64,000 nucleotides of DNA. It comes from an uncultured Gemmatimonadota bacterium (GTDB lineage Bacteria; JAAXHH01). Location: the NCBI GenBank assembly GCA_951812955.1, contig OX638340.1:576001-640000 (forward strand), written 5' to 3'. Both the position numbers and the translations under genes were made by a program. The notes beneath the pieces are model-generated. The model did not search any database. It saw only the letters and a program-made list of their open reading frames with translations, and was not told where the DNA came from. This document shows, one piece after another, positions 5,898-49,434 of this stretch; position 1 is the first letter of the stretch, and every line of letters begins with the position of its first letter.

Positions 5898-5916
5898 TGC
5901 TTGCAGTCTGGAGATG

Positions 5917-6291
5917 TTAGATCAGACCTCGTTCTTCTTTGGATTTACACTCAATGCACATCCGGGCGTGGGGTACGGCCTCGAGCCGCGCCTTGCCGAT
6001 ATCACTGTTACACACGTAGCAAAGGCCGTAGGCGCCGTTCTTGATTCGCTCCAGGGCTTCGTCGATATGAAACAGGAATCTGCCCTCCCGGGAGGCGAGA
6101 TCATAGGCCTGTTCCTGCTCCATGGACTCGGTGCCCTGGTCTGCCGGGTGTTCCGAGAAAGGATAGCTGCCCGCGACATCGCGCGCAGCGGAATTAATCG
6201 TCTTGTCACCGAAATAGCCCAGCTCATGCAACAGGGTTTCACGTTTCTCGAGCAGGAGCTTTTCGAATCGTTTCAAATCTGCACCCGTCAT
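5917..6291 (-). CDS. DksA/TraR family C4-type zinc-finger protein
   Basis: 'CYVCNSDIGKARLEAVPHARMCIECK' four-Cys finger. ATG 6291 has GGAGG 5 nt upstream. The longer ORF start (6411) lacks homology. Confidence 0.75.
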   Translation of the reverse strand: MTGADLKRFEKLLLEKRETLLHELGYFGDKTINSAARDVAGSYPFSEHPADQGTESMEQEQAYDLASREGRFLFHIDEALERIKNGAYGLCYVCNSDIGKARLEAVPHARMCIECKSKEERGLI

Positions 6292-7063
6292 CCATACCTC
6301 CACGACAAAGAAGACATTGATTGATGATTTCCGCCAGCCTTCCGTATACCTCACTTTGCGCGGGTATCGACGAAAATAAGGCATTTCCGTCGACCGGCCA
6401 ACACTTTTCAACGACCCCCACCGCGGCGACCGGCAAACCGCAATGCACGGCCGCGATCACTTCATCCAGCAATCCTTCGCCGACCACATCTATACCCGCA
6501 TCGATACCCGACTGCAACCACGTAGATGGATCGTCACCGGCCGTGGACCCGCCGATCCGGCCATACACAACGCTCCGCAAGTCAAGGCCCATCGATGCCG
6601 CACCGCGCTTCAGCCTGAACGACCAGAGCGCGTCATAAGGTTCGCTCATGTCGGGATAACGCGGACCCAGCCGTTCGTCGTTGGGGCCCCGCAGCGGGCT
6701 CTCACCTGTGCAGTTTACGTGATCGCCCACAAGCACGTAAGAACCGGCTTCGTATTCGTTATTCAGTGCGGTACAGCCTGCCGCGATTACCAGGCTCTCT
6801 GCGCGCAATATACGCAGGACCCGCACCGCATCGATTCTGCGTTCCGGTTCCACGTCGAATCCAAGGAAGGGAAGCACCACCGGTCCAGCCCGGTATACAG
6901 TCTCAAAGGGCGACCAGGATCCGGACGTCTTCATTTCCTTCCAGTTAAAGGCATGCGATGATTCACGGGGAAGCATCAGACCGACAATTCTGTTGCCCCG
7001 CAGTTGTTCTTCCATCCTGCCGGCCAGCATAGTAATTCGGTCGTAGGTCATCCTGCTGCGCAA
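6239..7063 (-). CDS. purine-nucleoside-phosphorylase-fold protein, divergent (several catalytic motifs not recognisable)
   Basis: 'GDHVNCTGESPLRGPNDERLGPRYPDMSEPYD' aligns with the PNP core 'DHINFMGTNPLIGPN..FG.RFPDMS.AYD'. Start uncertain (TTG 7063 or ATG 7051). The 3' end overlaps the dksA-like start by about 50 nt. Confidence 0.55.
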   Translation of the reverse strand: MRSRMTYDRITMLAGRMEEQLRGNRIVGLMLPRESSHAFNWKEMKTSGSWSPFETVYRAGPVVLPFLGFDVEPERRIDAVRVLRILRAESLVIAAGCTALNNEYEAGSYVLVGDHVNCTGESPLRGPNDERLGPRYPDMSEPYDALWSFRLKRGAASMGLDLRSVVYGRIGGSTAGDDPSTWLQSGIDAGIDVVGEGLLDEVIAAVHCGLPVAAVGVVEKCWPVDGNALFSSIPAQSEVYGRLAEIINQCLLCRGGMDDGCRFETIRKAPARET

Positions 7064-7087
7064 GTCAGCCCCTGGATATCGAGTGAA

Positions 7088-7606
7088 TCACGGAACTCGG
7101 CCCGATTGGGACTGCGGACCGGGTTCCAGCGTCTGGTTCTCGCCGCTTTCTTTCTTCATGCTCAGCATGGTGTCGAGCTGTTCCTGGTGAGATTCGAGCA
7201 GAATCCGGAATTTAACCTCGTAGTCTTTTCTCAAGGAAGTGAGCTCACGGAGTTCCCGTTTGATTTCGGTGACCTGGTTATTCGCGTCGGATATCCAGCG
7301 GTCCGCCTGGTTTTCCGCTTCCTTCAACACGTTCTCCGCTTCCTTCATGGCATTGGCTTTCATGTCGTGAATGACCCGCTGCGCCGACACCAGGGCGTCT
7401 TCGAGCAGTTTCCGCCGCCTGCCGACATCGGATAGCTCGTGATCCATCTTCGCCACCTGGCCGCGCAACGTTTCATTGTCCCTGACCAGTATTTCGAGCG
7501 CGGCGGCGGTAGAATTCAGAAACGCCTCCACTTCATCCATATCATATCCACTGACCCAACGTGTCTTGAATTTCTGACTCCGTATTTCATCGGGATTGAT
7601 GTCCAT
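7088..7606 (-). CDS. divIVA: DivIVA domain-containing cell-division protein
   Basis: N-terminus 'MDINPDEIRSQKFKTRWVSGYDMDEVEAFL' is the canonical DivIVA lipid-binding domain, followed by coiled coil. Confidence 0.8.
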   Translation of the reverse strand: MDINPDEIRSQKFKTRWVSGYDMDEVEAFLNSTAAALEILVRDNETLRGQVAKMDHELSDVGRRRKLLEDALVSAQRVIHDMKANAMKEAENVLKEAENQADRWISDANNQVTEIKRELRELTSLRKDYEVKFRILLESHQEQLDTMLSMKKESGENQTLEPGPQSQSGRVP

Positions 7607-8496: not shown

Positions 8497-9186
8497 TCAC
8501 GCCGGGCGTGCGCCGAAAATCGCCGTACCAACCCGGATCATATCCGCGCCTTCTTCAATGGCTACTTCAAAGTCATGGGACATGCCCATGGAGAGAACGT
8601 CCATGCCGATGCCCGTGACACCGGCGGAAGCAATGCGATCTCGCGTATCCCGGAGCATCCGGAAAGCAGGCCGGACATCTTCAGGATCGGGCGAGAAGGC
8701 GGGGATCGTCATCAGTCCCCTGACGGACAGCCCGGAGAGGACGGACAACTGCTCCGCGAGTTCCAGCGCGCGGTCAGGCTCCACACCTGCCTTCGTCTCC
8801 TCCGACGATGTGTTGACCTGGATCAGCACGGGCATGATCCTTCCCGCGGTCTGGAGACGCCGATCCAGTTCCTGTCCGAGCGAAAGGCGGTCGACTGAGT
8901 GGATCATGTCGAAAATCCGCACGGCAGACTTCGCCTTGTTACGCTGCAGCGGACCGATCATGTGCCACGTGGCGCCGTCTTCCGGACGGGCCTTCTCAAG
9001 CGCTTCCTGCACCCTGTTTTCACCGAAATCCGTGACACCGGCCCGCAAGGCTTCTTCGATCATCGCAAGGGGCTTGGTCTTCGATACCGCAATGAGGTGA
9101 ATGGACGAGGCCTCGCGGCCGGTTCGTTCGGCAGCCTTGGATATACGGTCGTACACCCGGACCAGATTGTCTTTGATCGTGGACAA
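8497..9186 (-). CDS. yggS: YggS family pyridoxal-phosphate homeostasis protein
   Basis: 'IHLIAVSKTKP', 'FGENRVQE', 'WHMIGPLQRNK', 'LSMGMSHDFEVAIEEGADMIRVGTAIFG'. I chose TTG 9186 ('LSTIKDNL') by alignment to the E. coli YggS N-terminus. The ORF extends to TTG 9246. Confidence 0.8.
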   Translation of the reverse strand: MSTIKDNLVRVYDRISKAAERTGREASSIHLIAVSKTKPLAMIEEALRAGVTDFGENRVQEALEKARPEDGATWHMIGPLQRNKAKSAVRIFDMIHSVDRLSLGQELDRRLQTAGRIMPVLIQVNTSSEETKAGVEPDRALELAEQLSVLSGLSVRGLMTIPAFSPDPEDVRPAFRMLRDTRDRIASAGVTGIGMDVLSMGMSHDFEVAIEEGADMIRVGTAIFGARPA

Positions 9187-9396
9187 AGGATCAGCCTCAT
9201 CGAAAAACAAGTCTGATAATATATGCGACCCGGGACTACGTCGCAATAGAAATCAGAAATTGTCGAGATTGCATCGGTGAACGAGATTCTGCCCGGCTTC
9301 TCCGACTGTAACAAAAGTGCAAACGGCTGCGATGCCGCGTTTCCGGACCGGCCGGCCGGCATGAGTGACGCAGCCTGAAATCGGAAAGGGAACATC

Positions 9397-10938
9397 TTGC
9401 TATCGCGAGTCTCAAGTGGCGCCGTGCAGGGCATCGACGCTATTCACGTAGCCGTGGAAACCCATATCACCAACGGCCTCCCTCATTTTTCCACCGTTGG
9501 GCTTCCGGACAGCGCCGTACGGGAGAGCAAGGATCGCGTGATGGCCGCAATCAAGCAGTCCGGTTTTAACTATCCGTACCGCCGGATCACCATCAACCTT
9601 GCGCCCGCGGACGTGCGGAAGGCGGGTACCTCCTTCGATCTCCCCATCGCCGTCGGCATTCTCGCCGCGTCGGCGCAGTTGCCGGCCCAGTCCCTTGAAG
9701 ATACGGTTCTGCTGGGCGAACTGTCATTGGACGGCGCCCTCCGGCCGGTCAGAGGCGCGCTATCCGTCGCGCTTGCGGCGCGGCGTCTGGGCGCGCGCAG
9801 GGTGATTGTTCCGCGCGAGAATGCCGATGAGGCCGCAATGGCCCGCGACATCGACGTTTACGGCGTACCGACTCTGGAATCCGCGGCCCGCTTCCTCCAG
9901 GGACGAACCGGTTTTGTCCGGTCCCGCCGCGATGCCTGTCAACTCCTCTCGTCCAACGGGGAGTATCCCTTCGATTTCGCCGAAGTAAAAGGACAGGATC
10001 ACGCGAAACGCGCCATAGAAGTAGCTGCCGCGGGATCACACAATCTGCTGCTCATCGGCCCACCGGGTTCGGGCAAAACGATGCTTGCCCGCTGCTTGCC
10101 GTCCATACTTCCCGATTTCACCCTGTCGGAGGCGTTGGAGACTACCCGGATTCATAGTGTGGCGGGCAAGATACCTGCGTTCTCTTCCCTGGTGACCTCA
10201 CGGCCCTTCCGTGCGCCTCACCACACCATTACCGAGGCGGGACTGATCGGCGGCGGGAGGAATCCTAAGCCCGGAGAGGTGTCCCTGGCTCACAACGGCG
10301 TGCTTTTTCTGGATGAACTGCCCGAATTCCGAAAGCACGTGCTGGAAATGCTCCGGCAACCCCTCGAAGACGGAAAAGTCAATCTTTCACGCGCTTCGAG
10401 GTCGCTGGCCTATCCAGCTCGATTTACCCTGGTCGCCGCCATGAATCCCTGTCCATGCGGATACTTCGGCGATCCGGCCCACGAATGCATCTGCCCGCCC
10501 AACCGGATTCATCAATACATGTCCCGGATTTCCGGACCGCTGCTCGACCGGATCGATTTGCACGTCGAGGTACCCCCGGTACCGTACGGGCTCCTCAGCG
10601 GCCGTTCCGGCGGCGAACCGTCCGATCGAATCAGAGATCGGGTCAACCGCTCCAGGGAACGCCAGTTGCCGCGTTTTTCCAACCATCCCGGCTCCTTTGG
10701 CAACGCGCACATGACGCCCCGCGATCTTCACCGCTATTGCAGTATGGACGGAAGCGCCCACGACCTGTTGCGGAGCGCCATCGCCCGTCTGGGTCTCTCC
10801 GCCAGGGCCTACGATCGTATTCTGAAAGTCGCCAGAACCATCGGCGACCTGGCCGGTGCGGAAGAGATCAACGCGGAACACGTGGGCGAAGCTATACAGT
10901 ACCGGTCACTCGACCGCGGCAAATGGATGGACTTCTGA
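9397..10938 (+). CDS. comM: YifB/ComM family Mg-chelatase-like AAA+ ATPase
   Basis: Lon-like N-domain, Walker A 'GPPGSGKTM', 'VLFLDELPEF', Cys-rich 'CPCGYFGDPAHECICPP'. TTG start with GAAAGGGA upstream. Confidence 0.9.
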   Translation: MLSRVSSGAVQGIDAIHVAVETHITNGLPHFSTVGLPDSAVRESKDRVMAAIKQSGFNYPYRRITINLAPADVRKAGTSFDLPIAVGILAASAQLPAQSLEDTVLLGELSLDGALRPVRGALSVALAARRLGARRVIVPRENADEAAMARDIDVYGVPTLESAARFLQGRTGFVRSRRDACQLLSSNGEYPFDFAEVKGQDHAKRAIEVAAAGSHNLLLIGPPGSGKTMLARCLPSILPDFTLSEALETTRIHSVAGKIPAFSSLVTSRPFRAPHHTITEAGLIGGGRNPKPGEVSLAHNGVLFLDELPEFRKHVLEMLRQPLEDGKVNLSRASRSLAYPARFTLVAAMNPCPCGYFGDPAHECICPPNRIHQYMSRISGPLLDRIDLHVEVPPVPYGLLSGRSGGEPSDRIRDRVNRSRERQLPRFSNHPGSFGNAHMTPRDLHRYCSMDGSAHDLLRSAIARLGLSARAYDRILKVARTIGDLAGAEEINAEHVGEAIQYRSLDRGKWMDF

Positions 10939-21481: not shown

Positions 21482-22699
21482 ATGTGGAAACAGTTCAACA
21501 ACCTAGCCTACCGGATCTTCTTCGCATACCGAAACCGGAAATCGCGCAGCAGGAGCCGGGGATGGGCGGTCCGGGCTCCACTCGCGGCCGAGGCGGGACC
21601 CAGGCCCGTGCTGTATGTGGCGTGGGGCCGCGTCGGGGACGTGGTTCTGAGCACGGGGCATCTGAAATGGTTGCGCCGGTGGTTTCACCCCAGTCCGGTC
21701 TGGTTCCTCGGAAGGTCGAGCGTGAAACCGATCGTCGAACCCCATGTCGACGTCTTCCTGCCGTTCCCGGTACCGTTTGAGCGGAATACCGGCTTCGGCA
21801 ACGTCCCCGCCGCGTCGCTCGGCCGCATGGCGAACCGATCGTTCCAATACCTCATTACGGACATCCACACGTTTTACGGCGGCCTGTTCACTCTGGATGG
21901 CCTGCTGGCCTCCGTGCGGGCGGAACGGAAGTTCGTCTACGAAGGATACCACCTGGGAAAAGACCTGGCTCCGGAGCGGCCTTATCCGGACGATTACGAG
22001 ATCGTGCCGAAGTACGGGGACCGGGATGACCGGGATACGGATTTCGCTGGTGGCCATATGTTGACACACAACGGCCATTACATCCGCCACGTGTTGGACC
22101 GCTGCGGTGTCGAGCCGGATGACGGGGCGCAGTGGCGTCCGGACCTTGGCCATGTCGGAGAGGGGACGGAGGAATGCCGCCGGTTGGGGATCGAACCGGG
22201 TGAATTCGTGGCCTGGCAGCCCACCAGCGCAAACAGGAGGAAAGACTACCCGTTGTCATGCTGGGCGGAGACGATCCGCGCATTTCCGGATCAGCAGTTT
22301 GTCGCGCTGGTCGAGCCGGGCGCCGCCGCCGGTCTGGACCAGGCCGCCTTGCCGGGCGTGCGCGTCGTCGAATCGGGTTTAGCCGTGGCGATGAAGCTGA
22401 TCAGGGAGGCGCGCCTGTTTGTCGGACTGGATTCCGGGCTGAGCCATATCTCGACGGTGCTGGGAACACCGACGGTGTGTGTCTGTCCGGACAGCCATCT
22501 CGGATACTTCTTTCCCTATCCCGACGGCTACGGCTTCACGAACCTGCGCACCGTCGCCCATCCGGACTACCTGTCGTGCCGGGGATGTTTCATGACTTGC
22601 GAACACGAACCCCTCATGTCGACGATCAGCCGGGGCGCGCTTTGCCTGCGCACATTGCCTCCCCGCCAGGTCATCGATGCGATAAAAGCCGCATTATAG
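21482..22699 (+). CDS. glycosyltransferase family 9 (heptosyltransferase-like) protein
   Basis: 'GRVGDVVLSTGHLKWLRRWFP' and 'FVGLDSGLSHISTVLGTPTVCV' match the GT9 pattern 'GD..l..p....Lr' / 'DSG..HlAaAlGtP.v'. Substrate unknown. Confidence 0.5.
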   Translation: MWKQFNNLAYRIFFAYRNRKSRSRSRGWAVRAPLAAEAGPRPVLYVAWGRVGDVVLSTGHLKWLRRWFHPSPVWFLGRSSVKPIVEPHVDVFLPFPVPFERNTGFGNVPAASLGRMANRSFQYLITDIHTFYGGLFTLDGLLASVRAERKFVYEGYHLGKDLAPERPYPDDYEIVPKYGDRDDRDTDFAGGHMLTHNGHYIRHVLDRCGVEPDDGAQWRPDLGHVGEGTEECRRLGIEPGEFVAWQPTSANRRKDYPLSCWAETIRAFPDQQFVALVEPGAAAGLDQAALPGVRVVESGLAVAMKLIREARLFVGLDSGLSHISTVLGTPTVCVCPDSHLGYFFPYPDGYGFTNLRTVAHPDYLSCRGCFMTCEHEPLMSTISRGALCLRTLPPRQVIDAIKAAL

Positions 22700-22706
22700 T
22701 TCGAAT

Positions 22707-22755
22707 GTCGCCTCCCGCGTCCGCCTTTCCTGTTGTTCGCCTCCCGCGTCCGCCT
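22707..22755. repeat. 20-bp perfect direct repeat TCGCCTCCCGCGTCCGCCTT (two copies, 29-bp period)
   Basis: Copies at 22707-22726 and 22736-22755 in the 68-bp convergent gap. The CGCGTCCG core recurs at 22771-22784. Confidence 0.9.
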
Positions 22756-22767
22756 TACCCGTCCGGC

Positions 22768-24711
22768 TCACGCGTCCGCGTCCGTTCTCAGATCGACCCG
22801 GACCGGGTGGGCCAGCGCGATGAGATCTTCGATATCGAACGAGGCGAGCAGGCCGAAACAGAAGAGCGGCGACAGCGTTTCATACCGTCCCGGTTCATCG
22901 ATCAGCCGTTGAAGGCTTGCAAGTCCCCGGCGCAGCTCGATTTCTTCCACCGCGTGACTGCTCAGGGACGATGCCATGAGCGCGACTACAGAAGAAGCGG
23001 GACCCACGGCCGTCAAGCCGGACAGGGCTGCTGCCTCGTGATCCAAGACCGCCGCGAGCTGCGCGACCTGCAGCCCCAGCATCCTTTCGCCGCCCGATGA
23101 GAGCATCATCGTCCACTGATGCGGCGCCTTGCCCAGTTCACACGCGCCCTGCATGACCACTTCCACCACCATGGCCGCGTTCCCTTCCCGCAGGGCTTCC
23201 GCTACCGGGGCCGACGCGCCCCGGCTTCCGGCGTCCGTCAGGATCAGTCGCTTTTTCGCGTATTCCCGCGTCGATGGAACGGTGGTACGGACAGGAAGCA
23301 CCCAGCCGTCCCGCAAATGGCAATGGCTGTAAGTCGTTTGGCGGCCGTCGCCGGATTCCGATGCCTGCTTGATCATTTCTTCAACCGGGAAGGGCCGGTA
23401 ACGTAGAATGGATCTGAGCCGGTCCCGTCCCGCCTTCTGCCATCGGCGCATCGCGGCCGGTTCCCCTGGTGGCTTTACGCGTTTCAGCCCAAGCGCCTCG
23501 GACCGGGCCAGGGTAACGAAATCGGCGTTTCCAATCGGCGTTCCTACGGTCAGTTCTTCTTCGGAACGCACCTCGTCGGCCGAGGGGATCTCCTCGTCGC
23601 GGCCGCACGCGCCCGGCAGAAAATGCCGGTTCAGGAACCGGTAGAAACTCTCCCTGTGCTCCCGTTCGTAGTTGTGGGTGCCCGGGTCGATGTTGTTGTG
23701 GAATTCAAAGGCATCCTGCCTTCCGTACGACGCGTAAAGCGGCCGGACCGGTTCGTAGACGGATGGTCTGGCCCTGGCGGTCTGGAAGCAGCAGTCGTCA
23801 TATTCGTTATACAGCAGCAGGGCCGGGCGCGGCGCAAGCATGGCCGTGAGTACAGGATAATCGGCCGTGGAGGCGAGATCCGCGGCATTCTGTTCGATGT
23901 CGCCGCGGTCGGCCGGGTGTTTGATCCGGCTGTCCAGGCCGATGTAACCGGCATTGGGCGCGGCGAGACGCACCCGCGTGTCCAGGGCGGCCAGGATAAT
24001 CGTCTGCCATCCGCCGCCGGACAGTCCGGTCACGGCTATACGCTCCGGATCGACATGTTCCTGATTCAGCAGCACGTCCAGCGCTCGGCTCATGGCGAGG
24101 TAGAAAACGGCGATACCGGCAACTCCGCACAGGTCCAGGTAAGCTGCGTTGTTGTGCTGGTAGCCCGGTCCCTGCAACTCGCCGAACCCCAGCCACTCGG
24201 GGTTCAGCGCTACCATGCCCCGCTTGGCCAGGTTGATGCATCGTTCCTGCTTGTAGTCCACCGCTTTGCCCGGGGGACCGACATGCCCGTTCAGGTTCAG
24301 CACCCCCGGCGTTGTATCTCCTAAATCATCCGGTTCATAAAGCAGCGCCGGGATGACGAGACCGGGCTGACCGGGCCAACCGGGCCGACCAGTACTGGCA
24401 GGACTACCGGGCAACGCGTGGTAGGTCAGCTTGCGGATCCGGTATCCTTTGCCGGTCTCGATCACGTCTTTCCACTCGACACGGAGCGCTCCCTCTCGCC
24501 ATTCGTCGGGAACGCCCTTGAAAATAACCTCCTCCAGCATGGTCCGACGCATCTTCGCGGCTTCTGCGTCCCAGGTATTCGCATCTGGAAGCCTGAAACC
24601 GGGAATACGGCCCAGCATATAAGTTCGGAGGGTCTCCATGGCATCGGGTTCACTGCGTGACGGCGATGGCCGCATTACCGCCCTGTCGTCATCCCGATCC
24701 GTTTCATTCAT
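22768..24711 (-). CDS. alpha/beta hydrolase (acetyl-xylan-esterase / dienelactone-hydrolase-like) with C-terminal extension
   Basis: Nucleophile elbow 'AVTGLSGGGWQT'. ATG 24711 has GAGGAG 8 nt upstream and overlaps the transglutaminase stop (ATGAATGA). Confidence 0.6.
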   Translation of the reverse strand: MNETDRDDDRAVMRPSPSRSEPDAMETLRTYMLGRIPGFRLPDANTWDAEAAKMRRTMLEEVIFKGVPDEWREGALRVEWKDVIETGKGYRIRKLTYHALPGSPASTGRPGWPGQPGLVIPALLYEPDDLGDTTPGVLNLNGHVGPPGKAVDYKQERCINLAKRGMVALNPEWLGFGELQGPGYQHNNAAYLDLCGVAGIAVFYLAMSRALDVLLNQEHVDPERIAVTGLSGGGWQTIILAALDTRVRLAAPNAGYIGLDSRIKHPADRGDIEQNAADLASTADYPVLTAMLAPRPALLLYNEYDDCCFQTARARPSVYEPVRPLYASYGRQDAFEFHNNIDPGTHNYEREHRESFYRFLNRHFLPGACGRDEEIPSADEVRSEEELTVGTPIGNADFVTLARSEALGLKRVKPPGEPAAMRRWQKAGRDRLRSILRYRPFPVEEMIKQASESGDGRQTTYSHCHLRDGWVLPVRTTVPSTREYAKKRLILTDAGSRGASAPVAEALREGNAAMVVEVVMQGACELGKAPHQWTMMLSSGGERMLGLQVAQLAAVLDHEAAALSGLTAVGPASSVVALMASSLSSHAVEEIELRRGLASLQRLIDEPGRYETLSPLFCFGLLASFDIEDLIALAHPVRVDLRTDADA

Positions 24712-25621
24712 CGGCGCGTCTCCTCTCGACCGGATTGCGCCGTATCGGGTTATTTTCCGAAAGAGGCCGCATGGTCACAGCTACTTCGATCTCGATCTCA
24801 CCACCGCCCTGCAACACGCCGTGCGTGGGAGAAACGTCCCTGTAATCTCTACCCACGGCCACGCGCACATACCGCTCATCGACCAGGGTTGCATTCGTGG
24901 GATCGAATGCGGTCCAGCCGAGTTCGGGCAACTGGCACTCCACCCAGGCGTGCGTGGTCGTCATTCCATCTCCGCTGACTTCCGCTGCAACGTCATGGAG
25001 ATAGCCGGATACGTACCGGGCGGGTATGCCCCAGGTACGCGCGATGGCGATCATGACGTGGGCGTAATCCTGGCAGACGCCGCGTCCGCTATCCAGTATA
25101 TGTTCAATTGTCGAGGAAAACGTAGTGGTTCCAGGATCATAGTGGAAGCGATCGTACAGCGTGGCCGAAAGCCGCCCCAACGCGTTCAGCGGGTCGTCCG
25201 TGGGCTTGATCCCGTTCTCTCGAACGAAGCGTTCAAGGACTGATGAAGGCCTGGCCAGGGCGCTATGGTCCAGAAAAACCCGATGATGAAACGAGTTGCG
25301 CCAACCCCTGATGGTCGCCCATGCCTCGTCTTCTATACGCTCCGAAGATGATTCGCAAGGAGTCACATCGACCGTGGATCGTGCCGTGATTACCAGTGAC
25401 CGGTGTTCGCGGTACAGGTGAAACTGGTGCCTGGTATTTCCGAAACTGTCCTCGACTTGAAAGAGCGATCCGGTCGGCTCCGTATCGATCCGGAAACCAG
25501 ATACGCGCTGTCTGCGGTCTTCCGTCGGTTTCAAAGCCAGCGACATCGCGCAGTTGCGCACGGGAATGCCGTAGCGGTATTTCGTGACGTGTTCGAGTTC
25601 GTAACGTACGTTTCCGACCAT
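24704..25621 (-). CDS. transglutaminase-like cysteine peptidase family protein
   Basis: N-terminal 'YELEHVTKYRY' (Bact_transglu_N type). Core 'GRGVCQDYAHVMIAIARTWGIPARYVSGY' with catalytic Cys; 'HAWVE' His. Confidence 0.85.
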   Translation of the reverse strand: MVGNVRYELEHVTKYRYGIPVRNCAMSLALKPTEDRRQRVSGFRIDTEPTGSLFQVEDSFGNTRHQFHLYREHRSLVITARSTVDVTPCESSSERIEDEAWATIRGWRNSFHHRVFLDHSALARPSSVLERFVRENGIKPTDDPLNALGRLSATLYDRFHYDPGTTTFSSTIEHILDSGRGVCQDYAHVMIAIARTWGIPARYVSGYLHDVAAEVSGDGMTTTHAWVECQLPELGWTAFDPTNATLVDERYVRVAVGRDYRDVSPTHGVLQGGGEIEIEVAVTMRPLSENNPIRRNPVERRRADE

Positions 25622-25625
25622 GGCG

Positions 25626-26594
25626 TCAGTGAGCCGGTAGAATCTCCAGCGGGTAGTCTATGTATGCGTCTATGACAAGGTGATGGAGTTTTTTGCTGTC
25701 GGCATGTACCCGGTCGAGTACCGGTTGCCATACCGCTACGTCGTTCCGGCGTGCCGTTACGCATTTGCACAGCGTGTCGCCCAGTCCAAGCGCTTCCCGG
25801 CTCGAATTCGGCGCCGGACCGTGGCCTATGGCGCGCAAAACTTCGGCGGCCGAATCGACGGAACGGCGGATCGAAGCAGGAAGCAGGCCATCTGTTACGA
25901 GCAGATCCAGCACCTGGCCGGGCTGGACCACCACGCTGTAGGTATGCACGTAGGCGTCGAATGCGTGAAACGCGTGCAGCAGGTTCGCCCAGTCCGCGTC
26001 GAAGGATTCGTCCTGCCGGCCGTGATCGGCGATCTGCGCGAGCATGACCGCGGCGGAGAGCTGCACCCTTTCGATATATCTACCCAGCTGAATGAAATGC
26101 CAGCCTTCGTCGCGGTACATGGTGGCGTCGGTCACGCCGGCAAACGTGTTGATTTCCACTGAAGTGCCGGCGTAAAACGACTCGGGGGTCGTCTTCCAGA
26201 TTTCCTGGATGTTCAGCTTCTGCAGGTGCAGATAGGCCGTGTTTAATGAAAGCCACATCTCCGCGCTGATGTAGTTGCGGACCTGCCTGGCGTTTTCCCT
26301 TGCGTACACGAAACAATTCCAGATGGAATCCGGATTCGTGGGCTCGAAGGTAAGATGGTCGGCAAGGGTGTACGAATCAGCGAGTGTGTAGTCATCACTG
26401 CGGAAGGCTTCAAGTGTGCCCGCGGGCGGCGCCTGGTTCATGCTGCGGTAAACCCGGTTCCAGCCGAAGTGGATTTCCCTCAGCGGACGATCCACGAGCG
26501 TTTCCACCTGCAGTTGCATCAAACGACACAGGTGCGCCGCACGTTCCAGGTATCTCCCCATCCAATAAAGACCTTGAGCGCTTCTGGACAGCAT
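25626..26594 (-). CDS. alpha-E domain protein (DUF403 type)
   Basis: 'MLSRSAQGLYWMGRYLERAAHLCRL' is the hallmark N-terminus. The start codon directly abuts the ATP-grasp stop (TAAATG). Confidence 0.8.
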   Translation of the reverse strand: MLSRSAQGLYWMGRYLERAAHLCRLMQLQVETLVDRPLREIHFGWNRVYRSMNQAPPAGTLEAFRSDDYTLADSYTLADHLTFEPTNPDSIWNCFVYARENARQVRNYISAEMWLSLNTAYLHLQKLNIQEIWKTTPESFYAGTSVEINTFAGVTDATMYRDEGWHFIQLGRYIERVQLSAAVMLAQIADHGRQDESFDADWANLLHAFHAFDAYVHTYSVVVQPGQVLDLLVTDGLLPASIRRSVDSAAEVLRAIGHGPAPNSSREALGLGDTLCKCVTARRNDVAVWQPVLDRVHADSKKLHHLVIDAYIDYPLEILPAH

Positions 26595-28028
26595 TTAATC
26601 TCCCAGGACCCAGATGTCTTTGCCTCCCCCGCCCTGGCTGGAGTTCACGACGAGACTTCCCTCACGCAGCGCCACACGGCAGAATGCCCCCGGGACGATG
26701 CGCGTCTCGCGTCCGTGCAGGACAAAAGGGCGCAGGTCCACGTGTCGCGCCGCGGCGCGGCCCTCGATCATGCAGGGAGCGCGTGAAAGGTCGAGCACGG
26801 GTTGCGCAATGAAATCGGCCGGATTTTCCAGGATCTCGCGGATGTAGGCATCCCGCACCGCAGAGGTCGATCGGGGACCGACCAGCATGCCATAGCCCCC
26901 GGACTCGCCCACCCTTTTAACGATGAGATCCTCCAGATTGTCCAGCGTGTATTCCAGGTCTTCCTCCCTCCGGCAGATGTAGGTTTTTACGTTCATAAGC
27001 AGCGGTTCTTCGCCCAGATAGTAACGTATCATGTCCGGAACGTAGGCGTACACGCTCTTGTCGTCTGCAACCCCCGTGCCCGGTGCATTCGCCAGGGTAA
27101 CGTTTCCGGCCCGATAGACTCCCATCAGCCCGGGAAGTCCCAGCAGAGAGTCCGGACGGAAAACCAAAGGGTCAAGGAAGTCGTCGTCCACCCGCCGGTA
27201 TATGACGTCCACCTTGCGCAGGCCCGACGTGGTGCGCATGTACACGTAACCCCCGTTGACAAGCAGGTCCCGGCCTTCTACCAGGGTCGCACCGATCTCT
27301 TCGGCCAGGTAAATATGTTCGTAGAACGCCGAATTGTATACGCCAGGCGTCAGCAAAACCACGCACGGATCGGGATCTTCCCGGGGTGCGAGTTCCTTCA
27401 GGATTTCACGAAGCAGGCGGCCGTAGTGCTCGACCTCCTGTACCCGGCAACTGCGATAAAGCCTTCGAAGATTGGCCTTCACCGCCTTCCGGTTGGCGAC
27501 CATGTAGGACACGCCGGAGGGCACACGGAGGTTGTCCTCGAGGACGTGGAACCCCTCGTTCGTGCGCACCAGATCCGTTCCACAGACGGCGACATACGTG
27601 CCGTGGGGGACGTTTATGCCCCGCATTTCCACGCGATACTGGGGACAACCGTGCACCATGTCGACGGGAATGACCCCGTCCTCGACGATACGGGCTGATC
27701 CGTAGATGTCGGCCAGGAAAAGGTTCAGGGCTTTCAGGCGCTGGGTAAGTCCGGCTTCGAGTTGCCGCCATTCCCCGGCTGTGATAAGACGGGGTAGACA
27801 GTCGACCGGCATAATTCGTTCATTGGCCTCATCGCCGCCGTAGACTGTAAACGTGATGCCTTCGCTGGAAAAGGAATGGGTGACCCTTTCCTGCATGCGA
27901 ACGAGTTCTTCAACAGGAAGCCTGAGCAGGGAATCGTAGAGCGTACGGCAGTGATCACGGGGGTTGCCGTCGGGCTGGAACATCTCGTCGTAGAAAGCGC
28001 TGTCGATTTCGTAATCTTCAAAGTCCAT
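26595..28028 (-). CDS. circularly permuted type-2 ATP-grasp protein
   Basis: 477 aa. 'YRRVDDDFLDP', 'NAPGTGVADDKSVYAYVP' and 'VKRVGESGGYGMLVG' are characteristic of the DUF404/DUF407 ATP-grasp family. AGGAGA SD. Confidence 0.85.
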   Translation of the reverse strand: MDFEDYEIDSAFYDEMFQPDGNPRDHCRTLYDSLLRLPVEELVRMQERVTHSFSSEGITFTVYGGDEANERIMPVDCLPRLITAGEWRQLEAGLTQRLKALNLFLADIYGSARIVEDGVIPVDMVHGCPQYRVEMRGINVPHGTYVAVCGTDLVRTNEGFHVLEDNLRVPSGVSYMVANRKAVKANLRRLYRSCRVQEVEHYGRLLREILKELAPREDPDPCVVLLTPGVYNSAFYEHIYLAEEIGATLVEGRDLLVNGGYVYMRTTSGLRKVDVIYRRVDDDFLDPLVFRPDSLLGLPGLMGVYRAGNVTLANAPGTGVADDKSVYAYVPDMIRYYLGEEPLLMNVKTYICRREEDLEYTLDNLEDLIVKRVGESGGYGMLVGPRSTSAVRDAYIREILENPADFIAQPVLDLSRAPCMIEGRAAARHVDLRPFVLHGRETRIVPGAFCRVALREGSLVVNSSQGGGGKDIWVLGD

Positions 28029-28451
28029 AACGAGGGTCTCCTATCTTTGGACCAGCGAGATCCTTGTCCTGGAACGGCAGGATATTTCGGGCTCAAAGGC
28101 GCCCTTCATACCTTGCTCATGCATTTATCACATCTTTCTCATGCTTTCTACTGCATAAGCATGTTATATGTGGTCATGCAATAGATCAAGCGAAGTTCTG
28201 AATCATCGCGATGCCGGCCAGACACGCAGAATTGATCCTGCACATTTGGAGAATTTCCAAACATTTTCAATACTGAAGTAAATTGAAACATTTTCATTGC
28301 GCTTTCCCTGTGCAGGGGTATTTTGCGTTTTAGTTCGAGTTAGCCAGCCGGTTTTCGTCACAGAATAGACAATTCAACAACCTCAAATTGCTACGCTTTA
28401 ATGTAATATGTTGATAACCGCGGGTTTATCCATCGTGCGGGAGGCGGACGA

Positions 28452-30788
28452 ATGGTAATGGAGTTTGGCAATATCCTTACCGCTTACTTCGATTTCATCT
28501 GGATGTCGTTCCTGCTTCTGGGTCCGATGTTGATGCTGGGTCTGCTGCTTTCGGGCCTGATCCACGTTTTCATCTCCCGGGAAGCGATACTCAGATGGCT
28601 TCAGGACGACAGCCTTCGCTCGGTCTCAATCAGTTCCGCCGTAGGCGTTCCGGTACCGCTCTGCAGCTGTTCCGTCGTTCCCGTAGTTGCCGAAATGCGA
28701 CGAAAGGGGGCTTCCCGCTCATCCTGCATGGCCTTCCTGATTACGGCGCCTGAAACCGGGGCCGACTCCATCCTCGTCACGAACGCTTTTTTCGGCTTCA
28801 TCGCCGCCGTTGTGCGACCTGTCATCAGTTTTATCACAGCCGTCGTGGCGGGTATTTTCTGCATCGGCCTGATCCGGGACGATAGTGGCGAGGCCAAGCC
28901 GGAGGAGGAAGACCACGGACACGCCCACCACGACCATGACCACGGTCACGACCATGGACATGACCACGATCATGACCACGATCACTCGGTCCACGATCCG
29001 CTGCTGTCGGACAAGGATGACTGCTATGTAAGCCCCTCCGCCATGAAGATCCTCATGACGAAGTGGATCAAGGGGTTGACTACCGTGGCGTCCACCTGGA
29101 GGTTCGGATCGTGGATCAAACCGGAATTCTACCGGGAGATCATCGGAGAGCAACCGGCGAAATCCGCGAATCGGACCGAACTGGATGAGGTGGAAGAAAA
29201 ATACCCCGGGCTCGATTTCAAGAAGATCGTCAAGCATATCTTCCACTACGGCTTTGTCGAGATCGCCGATGATATACTCTTCGCGCTGCTCGTCGGTATC
29301 GCGCTGGGCGGCGTGCTGTTCCTGGTCATACCGGCCGACCTGATGTCCAACGAATACGCACGCTGGCTTTCCTACCCCGTAATGATCATCGTCGGCGTGC
29401 CCCTTTACATCTGCGCCTCCGCCAGCACGCCGATTGCCGCCGCGCTGGTCGCCCGGGGCGTCAGTCCAGGGGCCGCCCTGATATTCCTGATGACAGGCCC
29501 CGCGACCAACACAAGCACCATCGCCATCATCATGAGTCAGTTCGGCGCGCGTTTCGCGGCCGTATACGTCACGTCAGTCATCGCGGTCACCGCGGTGATC
29601 GGCATAGCCATCGATTTCATACTGGTGGCCACCGGGTTTGCCATTTCCGTCAACCTGTTGCCTTCCGATTCCCCCACGCTTCAAATTCTGCAGTGGGGCG
29701 GCGCGCTCGGGCTGATCGCGCTTATCGTCTGGAGGTACCGCGCCGGCGCCATGCGCAGCGGTTACGAAGACCTCATGCTCAACATCCGACCCTTCTCCCG
29801 GCCATGGCGGAACACGTGGAAGCGGCTGACCCGTGACCGGTCGTTCCGGGGTACGATTTCACCCACCACACCCATGGGCATGATGCTGTGGGGCTTGCTG
29901 CTGGTCCTCTTTCTTGGCAGCGGGTTCACGGCCGTGCCGCCGGGTCACGTCGGATACGGCCGGTTGTTCGGCGAGGTATACTGGAAAGACCTTCAGCCCG
30001 GGCTTCATTACCTGGCGCCGCGCCCCCTCGTCCAGGTCGACAAGTGGCCAGTCAGGGAAGTAAAATCAATTATGTCCGAGACACCGTACGAGTACGTGTC
30101 GGGCGACCTGAACATGCTCACGCTCACCCTGGACGTCCAGTACCGGGTAAACGACCCGTACACGTATCACTACCGTACGGTCGATCCGGAAGAGATCATC
30201 GAAGACGCGGTGCGCGAGCACGTTCGTACTTTTGTCAACGCACGTGACCTGGATCGGCTCCTCACTGCATACCGGGCGGAACTGGAAGATGAGCTGACGA
30301 ATCTCTTCGTGACGGATGCCCGGATGCACGGCGACAAGTCGGTGCTTGGCACCGTCGACCTCGTGAAGGTCAGCCTGCTGAACGTCACCCCGGCGGCGGA
30401 AGCCCTGAGTTCCTTCCGGGAGATTTCAAGCGCCCAGGAAGACAGGGAAAGAATCATCGTCAACGCGCAACGGTTCATGGTGTCCCTGGTGCCGCGCGCT
30501 CACGGCAATGCCGAGTATGAGAAAGAACAGGCCGATGGAGAGGCATTTCGCAAGGTGGCGACCTCCGCGGCGGAAGCGGATGCCATTATGGTCATTTCTT
30601 CTGCCATGCAGACGGCGCCGGAAGTCCTGCGGAACATGCTGTGGCGGGAAAAGTTGGAATCCGCTCTCGCCGGCAATCCCAAGATTATCGTGCCCAACAG
30701 ACAGAGTTTCAACAAGGTCGCGATCTGGAAAAAGAGGCCGGCGGAAGCCGCCGCCCCATCCGCCAAGACAGGAGGTAAAGGCAAATGA
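28452..30788 (+). CDS. fusion protein: DUF318/ArsP-type (SO_0444-like Cu/Zn efflux) permease + His-rich loop + HflK-like SPFH (Band 7) domain
   Basis: One uninterrupted 778-codon ORF. N-terminal half is polytopic with 'VPVPLCSCSVVPVVAEM' and 'APETGADS'. Loop with 14 His in 29 residues. From about aa 474, a TM anchor 'MGMMLWGLLLVLFLGSGF' followed by 'VPPGHVGYGRLFGEVYWKDLQPGLHY' and a coiled-coil tail. Confidence 0.75.
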   Translation: MVMEFGNILTAYFDFIWMSFLLLGPMLMLGLLLSGLIHVFISREAILRWLQDDSLRSVSISSAVGVPVPLCSCSVVPVVAEMRRKGASRSSCMAFLITAPETGADSILVTNAFFGFIAAVVRPVISFITAVVAGIFCIGLIRDDSGEAKPEEEDHGHAHHDHDHGHDHGHDHDHDHDHSVHDPLLSDKDDCYVSPSAMKILMTKWIKGLTTVASTWRFGSWIKPEFYREIIGEQPAKSANRTELDEVEEKYPGLDFKKIVKHIFHYGFVEIADDILFALLVGIALGGVLFLVIPADLMSNEYARWLSYPVMIIVGVPLYICASASTPIAAALVARGVSPGAALIFLMTGPATNTSTIAIIMSQFGARFAAVYVTSVIAVTAVIGIAIDFILVATGFAISVNLLPSDSPTLQILQWGGALGLIALIVWRYRAGAMRSGYEDLMLNIRPFSRPWRNTWKRLTRDRSFRGTISPTTPMGMMLWGLLLVLFLGSGFTAVPPGHVGYGRLFGEVYWKDLQPGLHYLAPRPLVQVDKWPVREVKSIMSETPYEYVSGDLNMLTLTLDVQYRVNDPYTYHYRTVDPEEIIEDAVREHVRTFVNARDLDRLLTAYRAELEDELTNLFVTDARMHGDKSVLGTVDLVKVSLLNVTPAAEALSSFREISSAQEDRERIIVNAQRFMVSLVPRAHGNAEYEKEQADGEAFRKVATSAAEADAIMVISSAMQTAPEVLRNMLWREKLESALAGNPKIIVPNRQSFNKVAIWKKRPAEAAAPSAKTGGKGK

Positions 30789-31678
30789 CCGGTAAGGGAC
30801 GTGGCATCCGAACGGCCATCGTCGCGCTCGTGCTGGCGGCGATCGTTTACGACTGTTTCTATGTGATCAACGAAACCCAGCAGGGGGTCCTGACGAACTT
30901 CGGCCGGATTTCGCCTCCGGTGAAGCAGCCCGGACTACATGTCAAGTGGCCCCGACCGATTTCAAGAGTCTACAAGGTGGACCGGAGGCTGCAGACACTC
31001 ACCGACGTGTCCCATGAGTTGATTACCGAAGATCAGAAGAACATCCTGATCAGCGGCTACCTGCTCTGGCGCATCGTAGACCCAATCCTGTATGTCGAGG
31101 CGATACGCACGGGCGCCAATGCAGCCGAACGTCTGCGGGATCTCTACCTTTCGAGCAGTGGGATCGTGATCAGTAACAAGGCCCGTGATGCATTCATCAG
31201 CCTTGGGCTGGAACACGAAGACCTGCACGAAGCGGCCCGTGACATCCTGAGCAGTGTCGCCCCGATTGCCAGTACCAACTATGGTATCGAGGTGCTGAAA
31301 GCCGGTATCATCGAATACACGCTGCCCATGGAAAACCGCCCGGCCGTGATCCAGCGTATGATATCGGAGCGCGCGCGCATCGCGGCCCGGTACCGCAGCG
31401 AGGGCGAGGAGATGGCCATCCGCATCGAAGCGCTGGCAATAAACGAACATGAGAAGCTTATGGCGGAGGCGCACGCGGAAGCCACGGCCATACTCGGTGA
31501 GGCCGAAGCGGAAGCGATGGCTTTGCTGGGCAGGGCTTACCGGAGGGACCCGGCGTTCTACCGGTTCATCCGGGCCCTTGACAGTTATGATCTGATTATC
31601 GACAAAAACACGACCCTTATGTTGCCGGCCGACAACGAACTGTTCAGATACCTGGACAGCAGAACGGTTCCCAGGTAG
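30785..31678 (+). CDS. hflC: HflC-like SPFH-domain protein
   Basis: ATG overlaps the upstream stop (ATGA). 'YVINETQQGVLTNFGRI..PGLHVKWP'. The C-terminus 'DPAFYRFIRALDSY...LFRYL' parallels E. coli HflC 'DPDFYAFIRSLRAY...FFRYM'. Confidence 0.8.
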   Translation: MTGKGRGIRTAIVALVLAAIVYDCFYVINETQQGVLTNFGRISPPVKQPGLHVKWPRPISRVYKVDRRLQTLTDVSHELITEDQKNILISGYLLWRIVDPILYVEAIRTGANAAERLRDLYLSSSGIVISNKARDAFISLGLEHEDLHEAARDILSSVAPIASTNYGIEVLKAGIIEYTLPMENRPAVIQRMISERARIAARYRSEGEEMAIRIEALAINEHEKLMAEAHAEATAILGEAEAEAMALLGRAYRRDPAFYRFIRALDSYDLIIDKNTTLMLPADNELFRYLDSRTVPR

Positions 31679-31695
31679 AGCGAGATCTCAAACCC

Positions 31696-33033
31696 ATGAC
31701 GAACGAAAAGCGACCTTTACCTTACAGCACGCGCGTAATCTATGCCATGTTCGATTGGGCGCGCACCTACGGCTGGAACCGGCTGTTCTGGAGCGTGATC
31801 GCCTTTTCCATCGTGGCCGTGCTGGCCAGCGGGTTTTATATCATAAAGAAAGAAGAGCAGGGCGTCCTCGTTCGTTTCGGCAAGGTGGTGGACGAGAACC
31901 TTGGTCCGGGCATTCATTACTGCGTTCCGTTCATATACGAAACCCACATACGCAAGGTGAAGCGCATCGTCCGTGTCTCTATCGTCAGCGAAGGGACGGC
32001 TGGGGATACGCACGTCACGCTGCTGTCCGGCGACACGAACCTTGTGGAGGTGGATGTGGCCGTGCAGTACAAGATAGACAACCTGCGAAACTATCTCTTT
32101 GCGGTTTCGGACCCGACGATGTTGATGACCATGATCGTACGGGAAGAAATGGTCAATATCGTGGGGCAGAATTTCATCGACCTTATACTCACGTCTAACC
32201 GGAACATCATCGAACGTCATCTCCACGACTTCCTCGCCGGACGTCTCGAAACGATTGACATCGGTATCGAACTCGTCGACCTGAACATCCTGGACATCCG
32301 CCCCATCGAAGAGACCGTAGAGGCCTTCCGGGACGTCAACGATGCCATTTCCGAGCGCATGCAGTCCATCAGCAACGCCAACCTGCGCAGGGAGAAACTG
32401 GTCGCCCGCACGAAGGGCCAGACGGAAGCGATTGTCATGGATGCGAAAGCCACGGCGAGAGAACGCGTTCTGCAGGCCGAAAGCAGTGCCGGCGCATTCT
32501 CGAAACTGCTAGACGAATACGCCAAGCAACCGGCCCAGGTGGGCATTACCCGTTACTGGCAGCGGATGCGAACGATTTTCGCCGAAGCGAACCTGGCCGC
32601 GGTTAATCCCGGCAACGACGCGAATATCGAAGTCAACCTGGTAGACAGCGGCACGGCGTTGACGCCGGTGGAAATGGCTTTCGATTCGCCGGAAGCGTTG
32701 TCGGCCGCCGGCCCCGATTCGCTGGACAGGCCGGTTTATTCGACCTTGCCCCCGGATATTCATCGATATGAGAACATCGACAGGGACGGTTTCCTGATCG
32801 AAGGCAGATTCCATAGCAGGAACACCGAACGGGATCACCTTCCCGTCGCCAGGCCTCGATCGCTCATTTTCGACACGCCTTCCATCTTCAGCCATGGACA
32901 CGTGGCGACAAGCAGCACGGACACGGCGAATCAATCAGGCGAGAAGGCCATGGTCGATACCATGCACGACGAAGAAAGCGAAGAAGAATCTAAAGAGGGC
33001 ACGGAAGGGAGCCAAAGTGATCCGAAGCAATAA
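31696..33033 (+). CDS. hflK: HflK-like SPFH-domain protein with long acidic C-terminal tail
   Basis: 'FYIIKKEEQGVLVRFGKVVDENLGPGIHYCVPF', 'VEAFRDVNDAISE', then a coiled coil. The last 110 aa or so are non-homologous, ending 'DEESEEESKEGTEGSQSD'. Confidence 0.75.
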   Translation: MTNEKRPLPYSTRVIYAMFDWARTYGWNRLFWSVIAFSIVAVLASGFYIIKKEEQGVLVRFGKVVDENLGPGIHYCVPFIYETHIRKVKRIVRVSIVSEGTAGDTHVTLLSGDTNLVEVDVAVQYKIDNLRNYLFAVSDPTMLMTMIVREEMVNIVGQNFIDLILTSNRNIIERHLHDFLAGRLETIDIGIELVDLNILDIRPIEETVEAFRDVNDAISERMQSISNANLRREKLVARTKGQTEAIVMDAKATARERVLQAESSAGAFSKLLDEYAKQPAQVGITRYWQRMRTIFAEANLAAVNPGNDANIEVNLVDSGTALTPVEMAFDSPEALSAAGPDSLDRPVYSTLPPDIHRYENIDRDGFLIEGRFHSRNTERDHLPVARPRSLIFDTPSIFSHGHVATSSTDTANQSGEKAMVDTMHDEESEEESKEGTEGSQSDPKQ

Positions 33034-49377: not shown

Positions 49378-49434
49378 GTTACGTTCCGTCTCCCGTTAAT
49401 GTATTGAACAGATTCCCGACTGCCGTCCGCTCCG

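Follow-up and report, generated by a model that had tools for sequence, protein, structure and literature searches.

In the 64,000-nucleotide (nt) stretch of an uncultured Gemmatimonadota genome analysed here (the window; positions 576,001–640,000 of contig OX638340.1), four minus-strand open reading frames (ORFs) at 22768–28028 are in near-contact and encode, in this order, a circularly permuted ATP-grasp protein, an Alpha-E protein, a transglutaminase-like protein and an alpha/beta hydrolase. The original prediction assigned the first three to a triad known from comparative genomics, and saw in the hydrolase a fourth, dedicated component, which might release or recycle the ligated product. 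Our analysis points elsewhere: the hydrolase gene is probably co-transcribed with the triad as a passenger or accessory gene of one lineage, without being a dedicated fourth part of the triad machine. The extension of the operon by the hydrolase is real, but a dedicated role is unlikely, since the linkage is restricted to a single collinear clade, the two modules have separated in both directions within that clade, and selection on the hydrolase is the same without a working triad.

The gene identities and junctions hold as originally described. The ATP-grasp protein matches Pfam CP_ATPgrasp_2 over its full length, the Alpha-E protein encoded directly downstream has two ER motifs (GRYLER and GRYIER), and the third, transglutaminase-like protein has all of the Cys-His-Asp residues, namely Cys183 (GVCQDY), His (THAWVE) and Asp (FDPTN). 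The Pfam matches to Alpha-E, Bact_transglu_N and Transglut_core support these assignments, and the fourth protein is a Ser/Asp/His alpha/beta hydrolase. NCBIfam gave no match to triad models, and none of the four proteins matches a PADLOC defence-system model at E ≤ 1e-3. The Alpha-E ATG directly abuts the ATP-grasp TAA (TAAATG, gatTAAATGctg), a 4-nt gap (cgcc) separates the Alpha-E TGA from the transglutaminase ATG, and the transglutaminase and hydrolase genes overlap by 8 nt, ATGAATGA, such that the transglutaminase TGA (24706–24704) lies within the start of the hydrolase gene, whose ATG is at 24711–24709. A Shine-Dalgarno sequence, GAGGAG, is placed inside the coding end of the transglutaminase gene and ends 8 nt upstream of the hydrolase ATG, a geometry that agrees with the translational coupling claimed for this junction. 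Base composition is even across the window, and the names on the closest database proteins are those of Gemmatimonadota metagenome-assembled genomes (MAGs).

Triads of this type are best known from the Anbu operon, where the order ATP-grasp, Alpha-E, transglutaminase and Anbu is conserved (Valas & Bourne 2008, PMC3235984; Piasecka et al. 2018, PMC6376114). The original description, in which the triad is predicted to be an amidoligase or peptide-modification system and lacks a defined substrate, agrees with this literature; the operon is induced by nitrogen starvation and has no demonstrated substrate (PMC3235984, PMC6376114), and the amidoligase prediction is credited to Iyer et al. 2009, as cited in PMC6376114. 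In the literature consulted, the only activity shown for an ATP-grasp protein of this type is ATP hydrolysis by the Yersinia homolog (PMC6376114). In a 2026 preprint, the Mycobacterium tuberculosis homologs Rv2411c and Rv2567 were expressed but made no gamma-aminobutyric acid (GABA)-trehalose, which is instead produced by the unrelated ATP-grasp protein Rv1722, via ester formation (10.64898/2026.04.15.718621). We found no functional assignment of the triad in the newer literature, and none of the literature searched describes an alpha/beta hydrolase gene as the fourth one of the operon.

The surroundings of hydrolase homologs were searched with the window proteins at 80 loci (designated by L numbers here, as are the other loci below), taking one genome per species and up to 10 kb on each side. 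Triad sequences occur beside the hydrolase only in L001–L007 and L009, where the hydrolase is at least 69% identical to that of the window; in one of these, L002, the triad is decayed. At 38–54% hydrolase identity, ATP-grasp, Alpha-E and transglutaminase genes are absent from the fetched flanks of all 71 loci, 53 of which have at least 3.4 kb of upstream sequence. These loci are from Poribacteria, Planctomycetota, Verrucomicrobiota, Latescibacterota, Hydrogenedentota, Armatimonadota, Acidobacteriota and one more distant Gemmatimonadota. The search should be sensitive enough to find a triad, because the same ATP-grasp query finds genes at 47–53% identity in Proteobacteria and Deinococcus. The immediate neighbours of the distant hydrolases are not conserved: 95 of 121 are singletons, and those that recur are sulfatase, PmbA/TldD, PhyH, MetE-like and Nudix genes.

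A survey of how often a hydrolase follows the triad, as called for by the original prediction, gives the same picture from the other side. Triads outside the clade were sampled by way of transglutaminase homologs with their contigs, and annotated plasmids; none of the 14 carries a homolog of this hydrolase at E ≤ 1e-3. The fourth position is empty in most of them, and is occupied by an Anbu/proteasome-type gene in L085 and on a Klebsiella plasmid, and by a Hydantoinase_B gene in L095. The triads without this hydrolase include plasmid-borne ones from Deinococcus, Klebsiella, Sphingomonas, Sinorhizobium, Burkholderia, Kozakia and Acinetobacter, and the window ATP-grasp is 47–53% identical to the plasmid proteins annotated as "circularly permuted type 2 ATP-grasp protein". 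The operon in L085 is of the canonical Anbu type, and its fourth gene gives a weak Proteasome-family match (E 4e-4, below the Pfam cut-off); L085 was the only informative one of five loci from a metagenome scan with the ATP-grasp protein, in which peptide patterns proved too specific. The Klebsiella plasmid (L100) also has a canonical Anbu operon, with a "proteasome-type protease" annotated in the fourth position. In the same plasmid (Klebsiella pneumoniae, NZ_CP084831.1), a gene for a 304-aa "alpha/beta hydrolase" is found on the same strand 183 nt upstream of the operon (L100 4383–5297); it was rejected as evidence of a recurrent link, the protein being unrelated to the window hydrolase (BLASTP E 0.3). 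In a Sphingomonas plasmid (L101, NZ_CP155750.1), a convergent arginyltransferase gene, for protein arginylation, immediately follows the triad (8843–9640).

The nearest outgroup triads (L088/L089 and L091–L095) are 72–76% identical to the window in the ATP-grasp protein and 53–57% in the transglutaminase, and all consist of genes for ATP-grasp, an ammonium transporter (Amt), Alpha-E and transglutaminase, with no hydrolase. The Amt gene lies between the ATP-grasp and Alpha-E genes in all six of the nearest outgroup species sampled (for example L092, 852–5879), one of which is named as Acidobacteriota. The embedded transporter fits the reported induction of Anbu operons by nitrogen starvation and supports the nitrogen link proposed for them, and it may be a better functional clue than the hydrolase.

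Intact four-gene clusters are found at 13 loci, the window and 12 others (L001, L081, L003–L007, L009, L090 and L096–L098), a count in which some genomes may be represented more than once by different sources (L001 and L081, for example, are near-identical). All belong to one Gemmatimonadota-like clade. The hydrolase is therefore syntenic with the triad in relatives, as had been proposed as a test, with ATP-grasp proteins 87–97% identical to that of the window. The transglutaminase/hydrolase junction is tight, with an overlap of 8 or 4 nt or a gap of 1–2 nt, and is clear in 10 of the 13 loci, the window included; the start of the hydrolase is not resolved in L003 and L006, and L002 is the decayed case. 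However, the whole neighbourhood is collinear in the clade, in the order ArsP-SPFH, triad, hydrolase, GT9 and HlyD-RND, so adjacency inside the clade is hardly informative beyond shared ancestry. Relatedness across the clade follows a single pattern for the ATP-grasp, Alpha-E, transglutaminase, hydrolase and GT9 genes, which argues that the block was inherited together and not exchanged piecemeal. In L006, the HlyD protein is 94% identical to those of L004 and L005, and the block from ATP-grasp to GT9 groups with L003 and L009 (hydrolase identities of 72% versus 78–83%), which indicates a recombination breakpoint between the GT9 and RND efflux genes.

Within this collinear frame, triad and hydrolase have been lost independently of each other, which is not expected of parts of one machine. 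In L086 and L087, ArsP and the triad are present without a hydrolase, and the convergent GT9 gene and the RND genes come immediately after the triad. These two loci are the most divergent for every gene compared, and form the deepest branch of the midpoint-rooted HlyD tree. The L086 transglutaminase is called as 293 aa, and similarity to the C-terminus of the window protein runs in frame past its stop, overlapping the 3' end of the convergent GT9 gene (6880–7017), which suggests a recent premature stop or remodelling at the point where other genomes have the hydrolase. The opposite situation is seen in L002, a complete 3.7-Mb chromosome, where the ATP-grasp gene is broken into four pieces in three frames, the Alpha-E gene is in three pieces with about 50 codons missing, and the transglutaminase gene lacks its first 44 codons and has a frameshift. 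Random assembly error is an unlikely cause of this decay, because the adjacent hydrolase, GT9, HlyD and ArsP genes are all single uninterrupted matches. L008, the sister of L002 in both the HlyD and the hydrolase trees, has the hydrolase at the locus and no triad. The 270 nt that separate ArsP from the hydrolase in L008 can be aligned, through the conserved blocks, with the upstream region of the triad, and they end with GGAAAGCATGA aa ATGAATGAC, where the hydrolase begins. A deletion has thus taken out the triad together with the remainder of its leader, and the hydrolase now stands behind the promoter region of the triad.

The catalytic Ser, Asp and His are intact in the L002 and L008 hydrolases, and the ratio of nonsynonymous to synonymous substitution rates (dN/dS) for this pair is 0.195, compared with 0.21–0.32 in triad-bearing pairs. 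The lack of a working triad has left purifying selection on the hydrolase as it was. Taken with the absence of pairing beyond close collinear genomes, these losses tell against the hydrolase as the fourth component proposed originally.

The hydrolase has two domains. The N-terminal, esterase-like domain (approximately residues 75–365, nt 23617–24489) contains a GxSxG nucleophile elbow, Asp and His in the canonical order of the alpha/beta-hydrolase superfamily; Ser231 (GLSGGGW, with GLSGGG at 229–234), Asp305/306 (DDCCF) and His346 (GTHNY) are invariant among 20 homologs down to 44% identity, as is an FCFGLL...FD motif in the C-terminal part. The Pfam matches to AXE1 (26.6 bits against a cut-off of 21) and GCE_fung (27.1 bits against 27) cover only about 50 residues around the nucleophile, which does not suffice to place the protein in either family, and other matches near the elbow (DLH, Peptidase_S9, PHB depolymerase and Atxe2, from Pfam and NCBIfam) are weak and local. 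An isopeptidase function was considered and rejected, as the lasso-peptide isopeptidase Atxe2 model scores 17.8 bits against an NCBIfam cut-off of 400; PHB depolymerase is also below threshold. The AlphaFold model of the protein has a predicted local distance difference test score (pLDDT) of 85 and a predicted template modelling score (pTM) of 0.88. Its closest structures in Foldseek are the methylesterase BT1017 (PDB code 6goc, E 4e-14), CE15 glucuronoyl esterases, BF1801/BVU_4111 and CE7 esterases, with the Bacteroides "putative acetyl xylan esterases" 3nuz and 3g8y among the best fold matches; a sequence profile searched against PDB sequences likewise has 6goc as its best match (E 9e-14). 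The nearest structures are thus carbohydrate esterases and not peptidases or isopeptidases, which favours a passenger over a component of the triad.

The extra C-terminal region of about 250 residues, noted in the original prediction, is real and conserved throughout the family, although it is a second alpha/beta-hydrolase fold lacking a conserved nucleophile and not an extension of a new kind. Pfam and PDB sequence searches with this domain (approximately residues 440–642, nt 22786–23394) gave no matches, and the fold was resolved only when the C-terminal ~240 residues were modelled separately (pLDDT 86); the model is closest to CE7 esterases (E 1e-8) and 3nuz (TM-score 0.75). The nucleophile position is taken by Ala, Val, Met, Asn or Thr, and the domain has no conserved Ser or His. 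According to the models, the hydrolase is an internal duplication with one active esterase-like domain and one catalytically dead copy of the same fold. A database search returned 3163 homologs, almost all of about 620–700 aa and aligning over 94–100% of the query, from Poribacteria, Planctomycetota, Verrucomicrobiota, Latescibacterota and others; because the alignments are of full length, the C-terminal region is part of the family and not an add-on. As a by-product, a large uncharacterised family of two-domain esterases, with an active domain and a dead duplicate, is thereby recognised in Poribacteria, Planctomycetota and relatives.

Judged by hydrophobicity alone, a signal-like segment is present at the N-terminus in 45 of 52 homologs at ≤ 50% identity. 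The clade hydrolases lack it, and we infer a cytoplasmic location for them. Since the segment is also absent from a group at 51–57% identity, whose fetched member L029 has no triad, its loss should predate recruitment to the triad.

In the scheme that we favour, the first three genes are an ordinary ATP-grasp/Alpha-E/transglutaminase-like triad, the core of the Anbu operon but here without Anbu, and the triad would act as a cytoplasmic system, predicted to form an amide bond via an acyl-phosphate, with processing by the papain-like Cys-His-Asp enzyme. The hydrolase would itself be cytoplasmic but belongs to a large family whose members otherwise stand alone and are mostly exported; in the ancestor of a single Gemmatimonadota-like clade, its gene would have come to sit immediately after that of the transglutaminase. 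A single event would suffice, most simply a gain after the split from L086. The hydrolase would since have been transcribed from the promoter of the triad and translationally coupled to the transglutaminase gene, sharing the regulation of the triad while serving a purpose of its own. That purpose would presumably be to hydrolyse an ester, or possibly an amide, in a small molecule or sugar derivative, and the hydrolase is kept when the triad is lost.

A truly functional fourth component is the strongest competitor, even if we consider it unlikely. The hydrolase would then fill the Anbu slot and hydrolyse, recycle or proofread an amide- or ester-linked product of the ATP-grasp enzyme, as part of one four-protein pathway. 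The overlap or gap of ≤ 2 nt at the 10 four-gene loci with a clear start, the shared relatedness pattern of triad, hydrolase and GT9, and the absence of a signal peptide from the clade hydrolase would all fit, as would the canonical order in which the transglutaminase gene is followed by that of the hydrolase Anbu (PMC6376114; L085 and L100). The formation of sugar esters by the ATP-grasp protein Rv1722 (10.64898/2026.04.15.718621) would moreover suit a carbohydrate-esterase-like fold. Such a pathway is difficult to reconcile with a hydrolase that remains intact, and no less constrained by purifying selection, after the triad has decayed into pseudogenes (L002) or been deleted (L008), with the presence of the triad at the same site without hydrolase in L086/L087, and with the lack of any linkage in 71 other hydrolase loci and 14 other triads; in a fully collinear clade, descent alone explains the adjacency.

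In L095 (Acidobacteriota MAG GCA_028874215.1), a Hydantoinase_B gene, of the oxoprolinase/hydantoinase B type, overlaps the transglutaminase stop by 11 nt (5863–7590), and this arrangement also speaks for a functional fourth gene. The fourth position could be a slot for product hydrolases that is filled by unrelated enzymes (Anbu, Hydantoinase_B and the present esterase), with the clade hydrolase reversing a conjugate made by the ATP-grasp enzyme. We regard this generalisation as decidedly doubtful. A sugar or sugar acid with an ester or amide attached would be a candidate for this conjugate, in analogy to the ester-forming Rv1722. If the idea is correct, the substrate of the esterase would point to the long-sought product of the triad, and the retention of the hydrolase in L002 and L008 would call for a second triad elsewhere or a moonlighting role.

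Several observations weigh against a passenger. The tight junction holds in all 10 loci with a resolved hydrolase start, at 69–92% protein identity, a pattern that would at least fit selection for coupled expression. In operons of this type the canonical fourth gene encodes a hydrolase, Anbu (PMC6376114), and together with the Hydantoinase_B overlap in L095 this keeps a variable hydrolase slot in play. Without a signal peptide, the clade hydrolase could meet a cytoplasmic product. The triad status of L002 and L008 refers to this locus, and a second triad may be present elsewhere in either genome; much of the L002–L008 divergence behind the dN/dS value may predate loss of the triad. The polarity of the L086 arrangement (hydrolase never gained versus lost) depends on midpoint rooting, and the single transcript is predicted from the DNA sequence.

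Coordinates of the cluster and its borders are given in Table 1. On the hydrolase side, the cluster ends at a convergent GT9 glycosyltransferase gene located 68 nt past the hydrolase stop, and the other border is a divergent intergenic region of 423 nt that is shared with an ArsP-SPFH fusion gene.

Table 1. Genes and borders of the four-gene cluster (window coordinates)
Feature	Position	Strand	Support
Circularly permuted ATP-grasp (COG2308-type amidoligase), 477 aa; first operon gene	26595..28028	-	Pfam CP_ATPgrasp_2 E 1.3e-154, CP_ATPgrasp_1 E 2.2e-140
Alpha-E domain protein (COG2307), 322 aa	25626..26594	-	Pfam Alpha-E E 5.9e-63, full length
Transglutaminase-like cysteine peptidase/transamidase (COG1305), 305 aa	24704..25621	-	Pfam Bact_transglu_N E 1.1e-19, Transglut_core E 4e-23
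Two-domain alpha/beta hydrolase, 647 aa	22768..24711	-	Weak Pfam AXE1 E 3e-6, GCE_fung E 4.5e-6; fold matches
Divergent intergenic region with likely operon promoter and leader of ~150 nt	28029..28451	-	Conserved blocks in 14 relatives
68-nt spacer between convergent hydrolase and GT9 genes; operon end	22700..22767	.	Read from sequence

The operon promoter is likely to be located around 28160–28190, where a pair resembling −35 and −10 elements (CTTGATCT, 15–17 nt, TATAACAT) is found. A promoter consensus scan of 22300–28600 gave no site by its stricter rule, so the assignment is based on conservation. The conserved blocks of the leader, GGAAAGCATGAG, GCATGAGCAAGG, TTCCAGGACAAGGATCTCGC and GATNGGAGACCC, are kept in the 14 relatives, and the region 28029–28200 (minus strand) holds two copies of GCATGAG-AAG in addition to the TTCCAGGACAAGGATCTCGC block. 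The leader has a fold z-score of −2.4. A riboswitch-like element was considered and dropped, as an Rfam scan of the leader matched no family (only a chance microRNA match, E 4.6), and about 85 nt of the leader are missing from L005 and L007. A second conserved block at 28250–28330, ATACC and GTGCAAT separated by about 14 nt, reads on the other strand as TTGCAC, 16–17 nt and TATCTT/TATTTT, and is probably the promoter of the divergent ArsP-SPFH gene. A terminator scan of 22300–28600 found terminator-like sites at chance level, with none in the 68-nt spacer. Most of this spacer is filled by an exact 20-nt direct repeat, AAGGCGGACGCGGGAGGCGA, at 22708–22727 and 22737–22756 (period 29 nt), which occurs nowhere else in the window and for which 0.01 matches are expected by chance.

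Co-transcription of the four genes and translational coupling of the hydrolase are likely, because there is no intergenic space, the Shine-Dalgarno sequence is located inside the transglutaminase gene, and the deletion in L008 had the outcome described above. Both imply shared regulation and not shared chemistry. Mere adjacency of separate transcripts, with a hydrolase promoter inside the transglutaminase gene and the overlap as incidental compaction, is very improbable. Genes often overlap where a genome is compact, the promoter and terminator scans are uninformative, and the single transcript is itself deduced from sequence. Nevertheless, no locus with a clear hydrolase start has intergenic room for a promoter, GAGGAG is part of the transglutaminase coding end, and the L008 deletion put the hydrolase directly behind the triad upstream region with no transglutaminase-internal sequence retained, which argues that hydrolase expression depends on the upstream promoter.

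A narrower version of the passenger reading is that of a shared regulon, in which the hydrolase was captured because its activity helps whenever the triad is induced. The inducing condition would most likely be limitation for nitrogen or nutrients, and hydrolase and triad would have no substrate in common. The nitrogen-starvation response of Anbu-type operons (PMC6376114, citing transcriptome work), the Amt gene inside the triad of all six nearest outgroup species, and the retention of the triad promoter region by the L008 hydrolase are in line with this. The DUF403/DUF407 literature also includes an NtrC study in Burkholderia (PMC5491218). No nitrogen-regulator site was identified in the promoter region, where no sigma-54-type motif was seen by eye and Rfam gave nothing; the clade's own triad also lacks the Amt gene, and the substrate class of the hydrolase is conjectural. 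In so specific a form the proposal is improbable, and the same applies to its extension that the hydrolase might, for instance, release an assimilable moiety from an ester or amide in the cytoplasm.

Two other regions of the window were examined beside the cluster. Across the divergent intergenic region, 28452–33033 encodes an ArsP_1 permease fused to an SPFH/Band_7 domain (778 aa), followed by two SPFH-domain genes (297 and 445 aa); the fusion is kept in several relatives, and L086 has ArsP only. An ORF at 49435–50868 has the same length as the ATP-grasp protein, 477 aa, but was rejected as a paralog since it is SufB/D. Together with the adjacent SufC-like ABC ATPase it forms an Fe-S cluster assembly operon (48613–50868) unrelated to the four genes.

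The triad is found across bacteria, and has been without a known substrate since it was flagged in 2008–2009; an extra enzyme reliably linked to it would therefore be a handle on its chemistry. The hydrolase is not such a handle, as the linkage is young, limited to one lineage and dispensable both ways, and effort directed at a four-gene "pathway" would likely be misdirected. The relatives that lack either the triad or the hydrolase at the same chromosomal site are ready comparative controls.

Compared with known systems, the hydrolase resembles carbohydrate esterases by fold only. The N-terminal domain has the alpha/beta-hydrolase fold and Ser-Asp-His residues in common with BT1017 (6goc), CE15, BF1801/BVU_4111 and CE7, and the C-terminal domain resembles the CE7 and 3nuz families in fold; sequence identities are only 14–19%. 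Unlike these enzymes, the window hydrolase contains the fold twice, the second time in inactive form, and has no signal peptide here, and its nucleophile motif is GLSGGGW in place of the GCSRxG of CE15. The free-standing homologs of about 640 aa, annotated as "acetylxylan esterase" or "dienelactone hydrolase", have the same two domains and invariant residues at 38–54% identity, but most of them have the N-terminal hydrophobic segment and none is near a triad.

As for the operon, the Amt-embedded triads (for example in GCA_028874215.1; L088/L089 and L091–L095) have the same 4-nt gap between the Alpha-E and transglutaminase genes as the window, but differ in having Amt inside the operon and no alpha/beta hydrolase, whereas the window operon is without Amt. 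The Anbu operon has the same first three genes in the same order and with the same tight spacing, and in both cases a gene for a hydrolytic enzyme is placed directly after the transglutaminase gene. In the canonical operon this fourth gene encodes the proteasome beta-like Anbu, an Ntn-hydrolase of about 240 aa, and in the window a Ser-Asp-His alpha/beta hydrolase of 647 aa; no proteasome-like gene is seen beside the window cluster, and within the clade its fourth gene can be parted from the triad. The triad itself is typical of the known family, and the four-gene version with an alpha/beta hydrolase is a variant of it.

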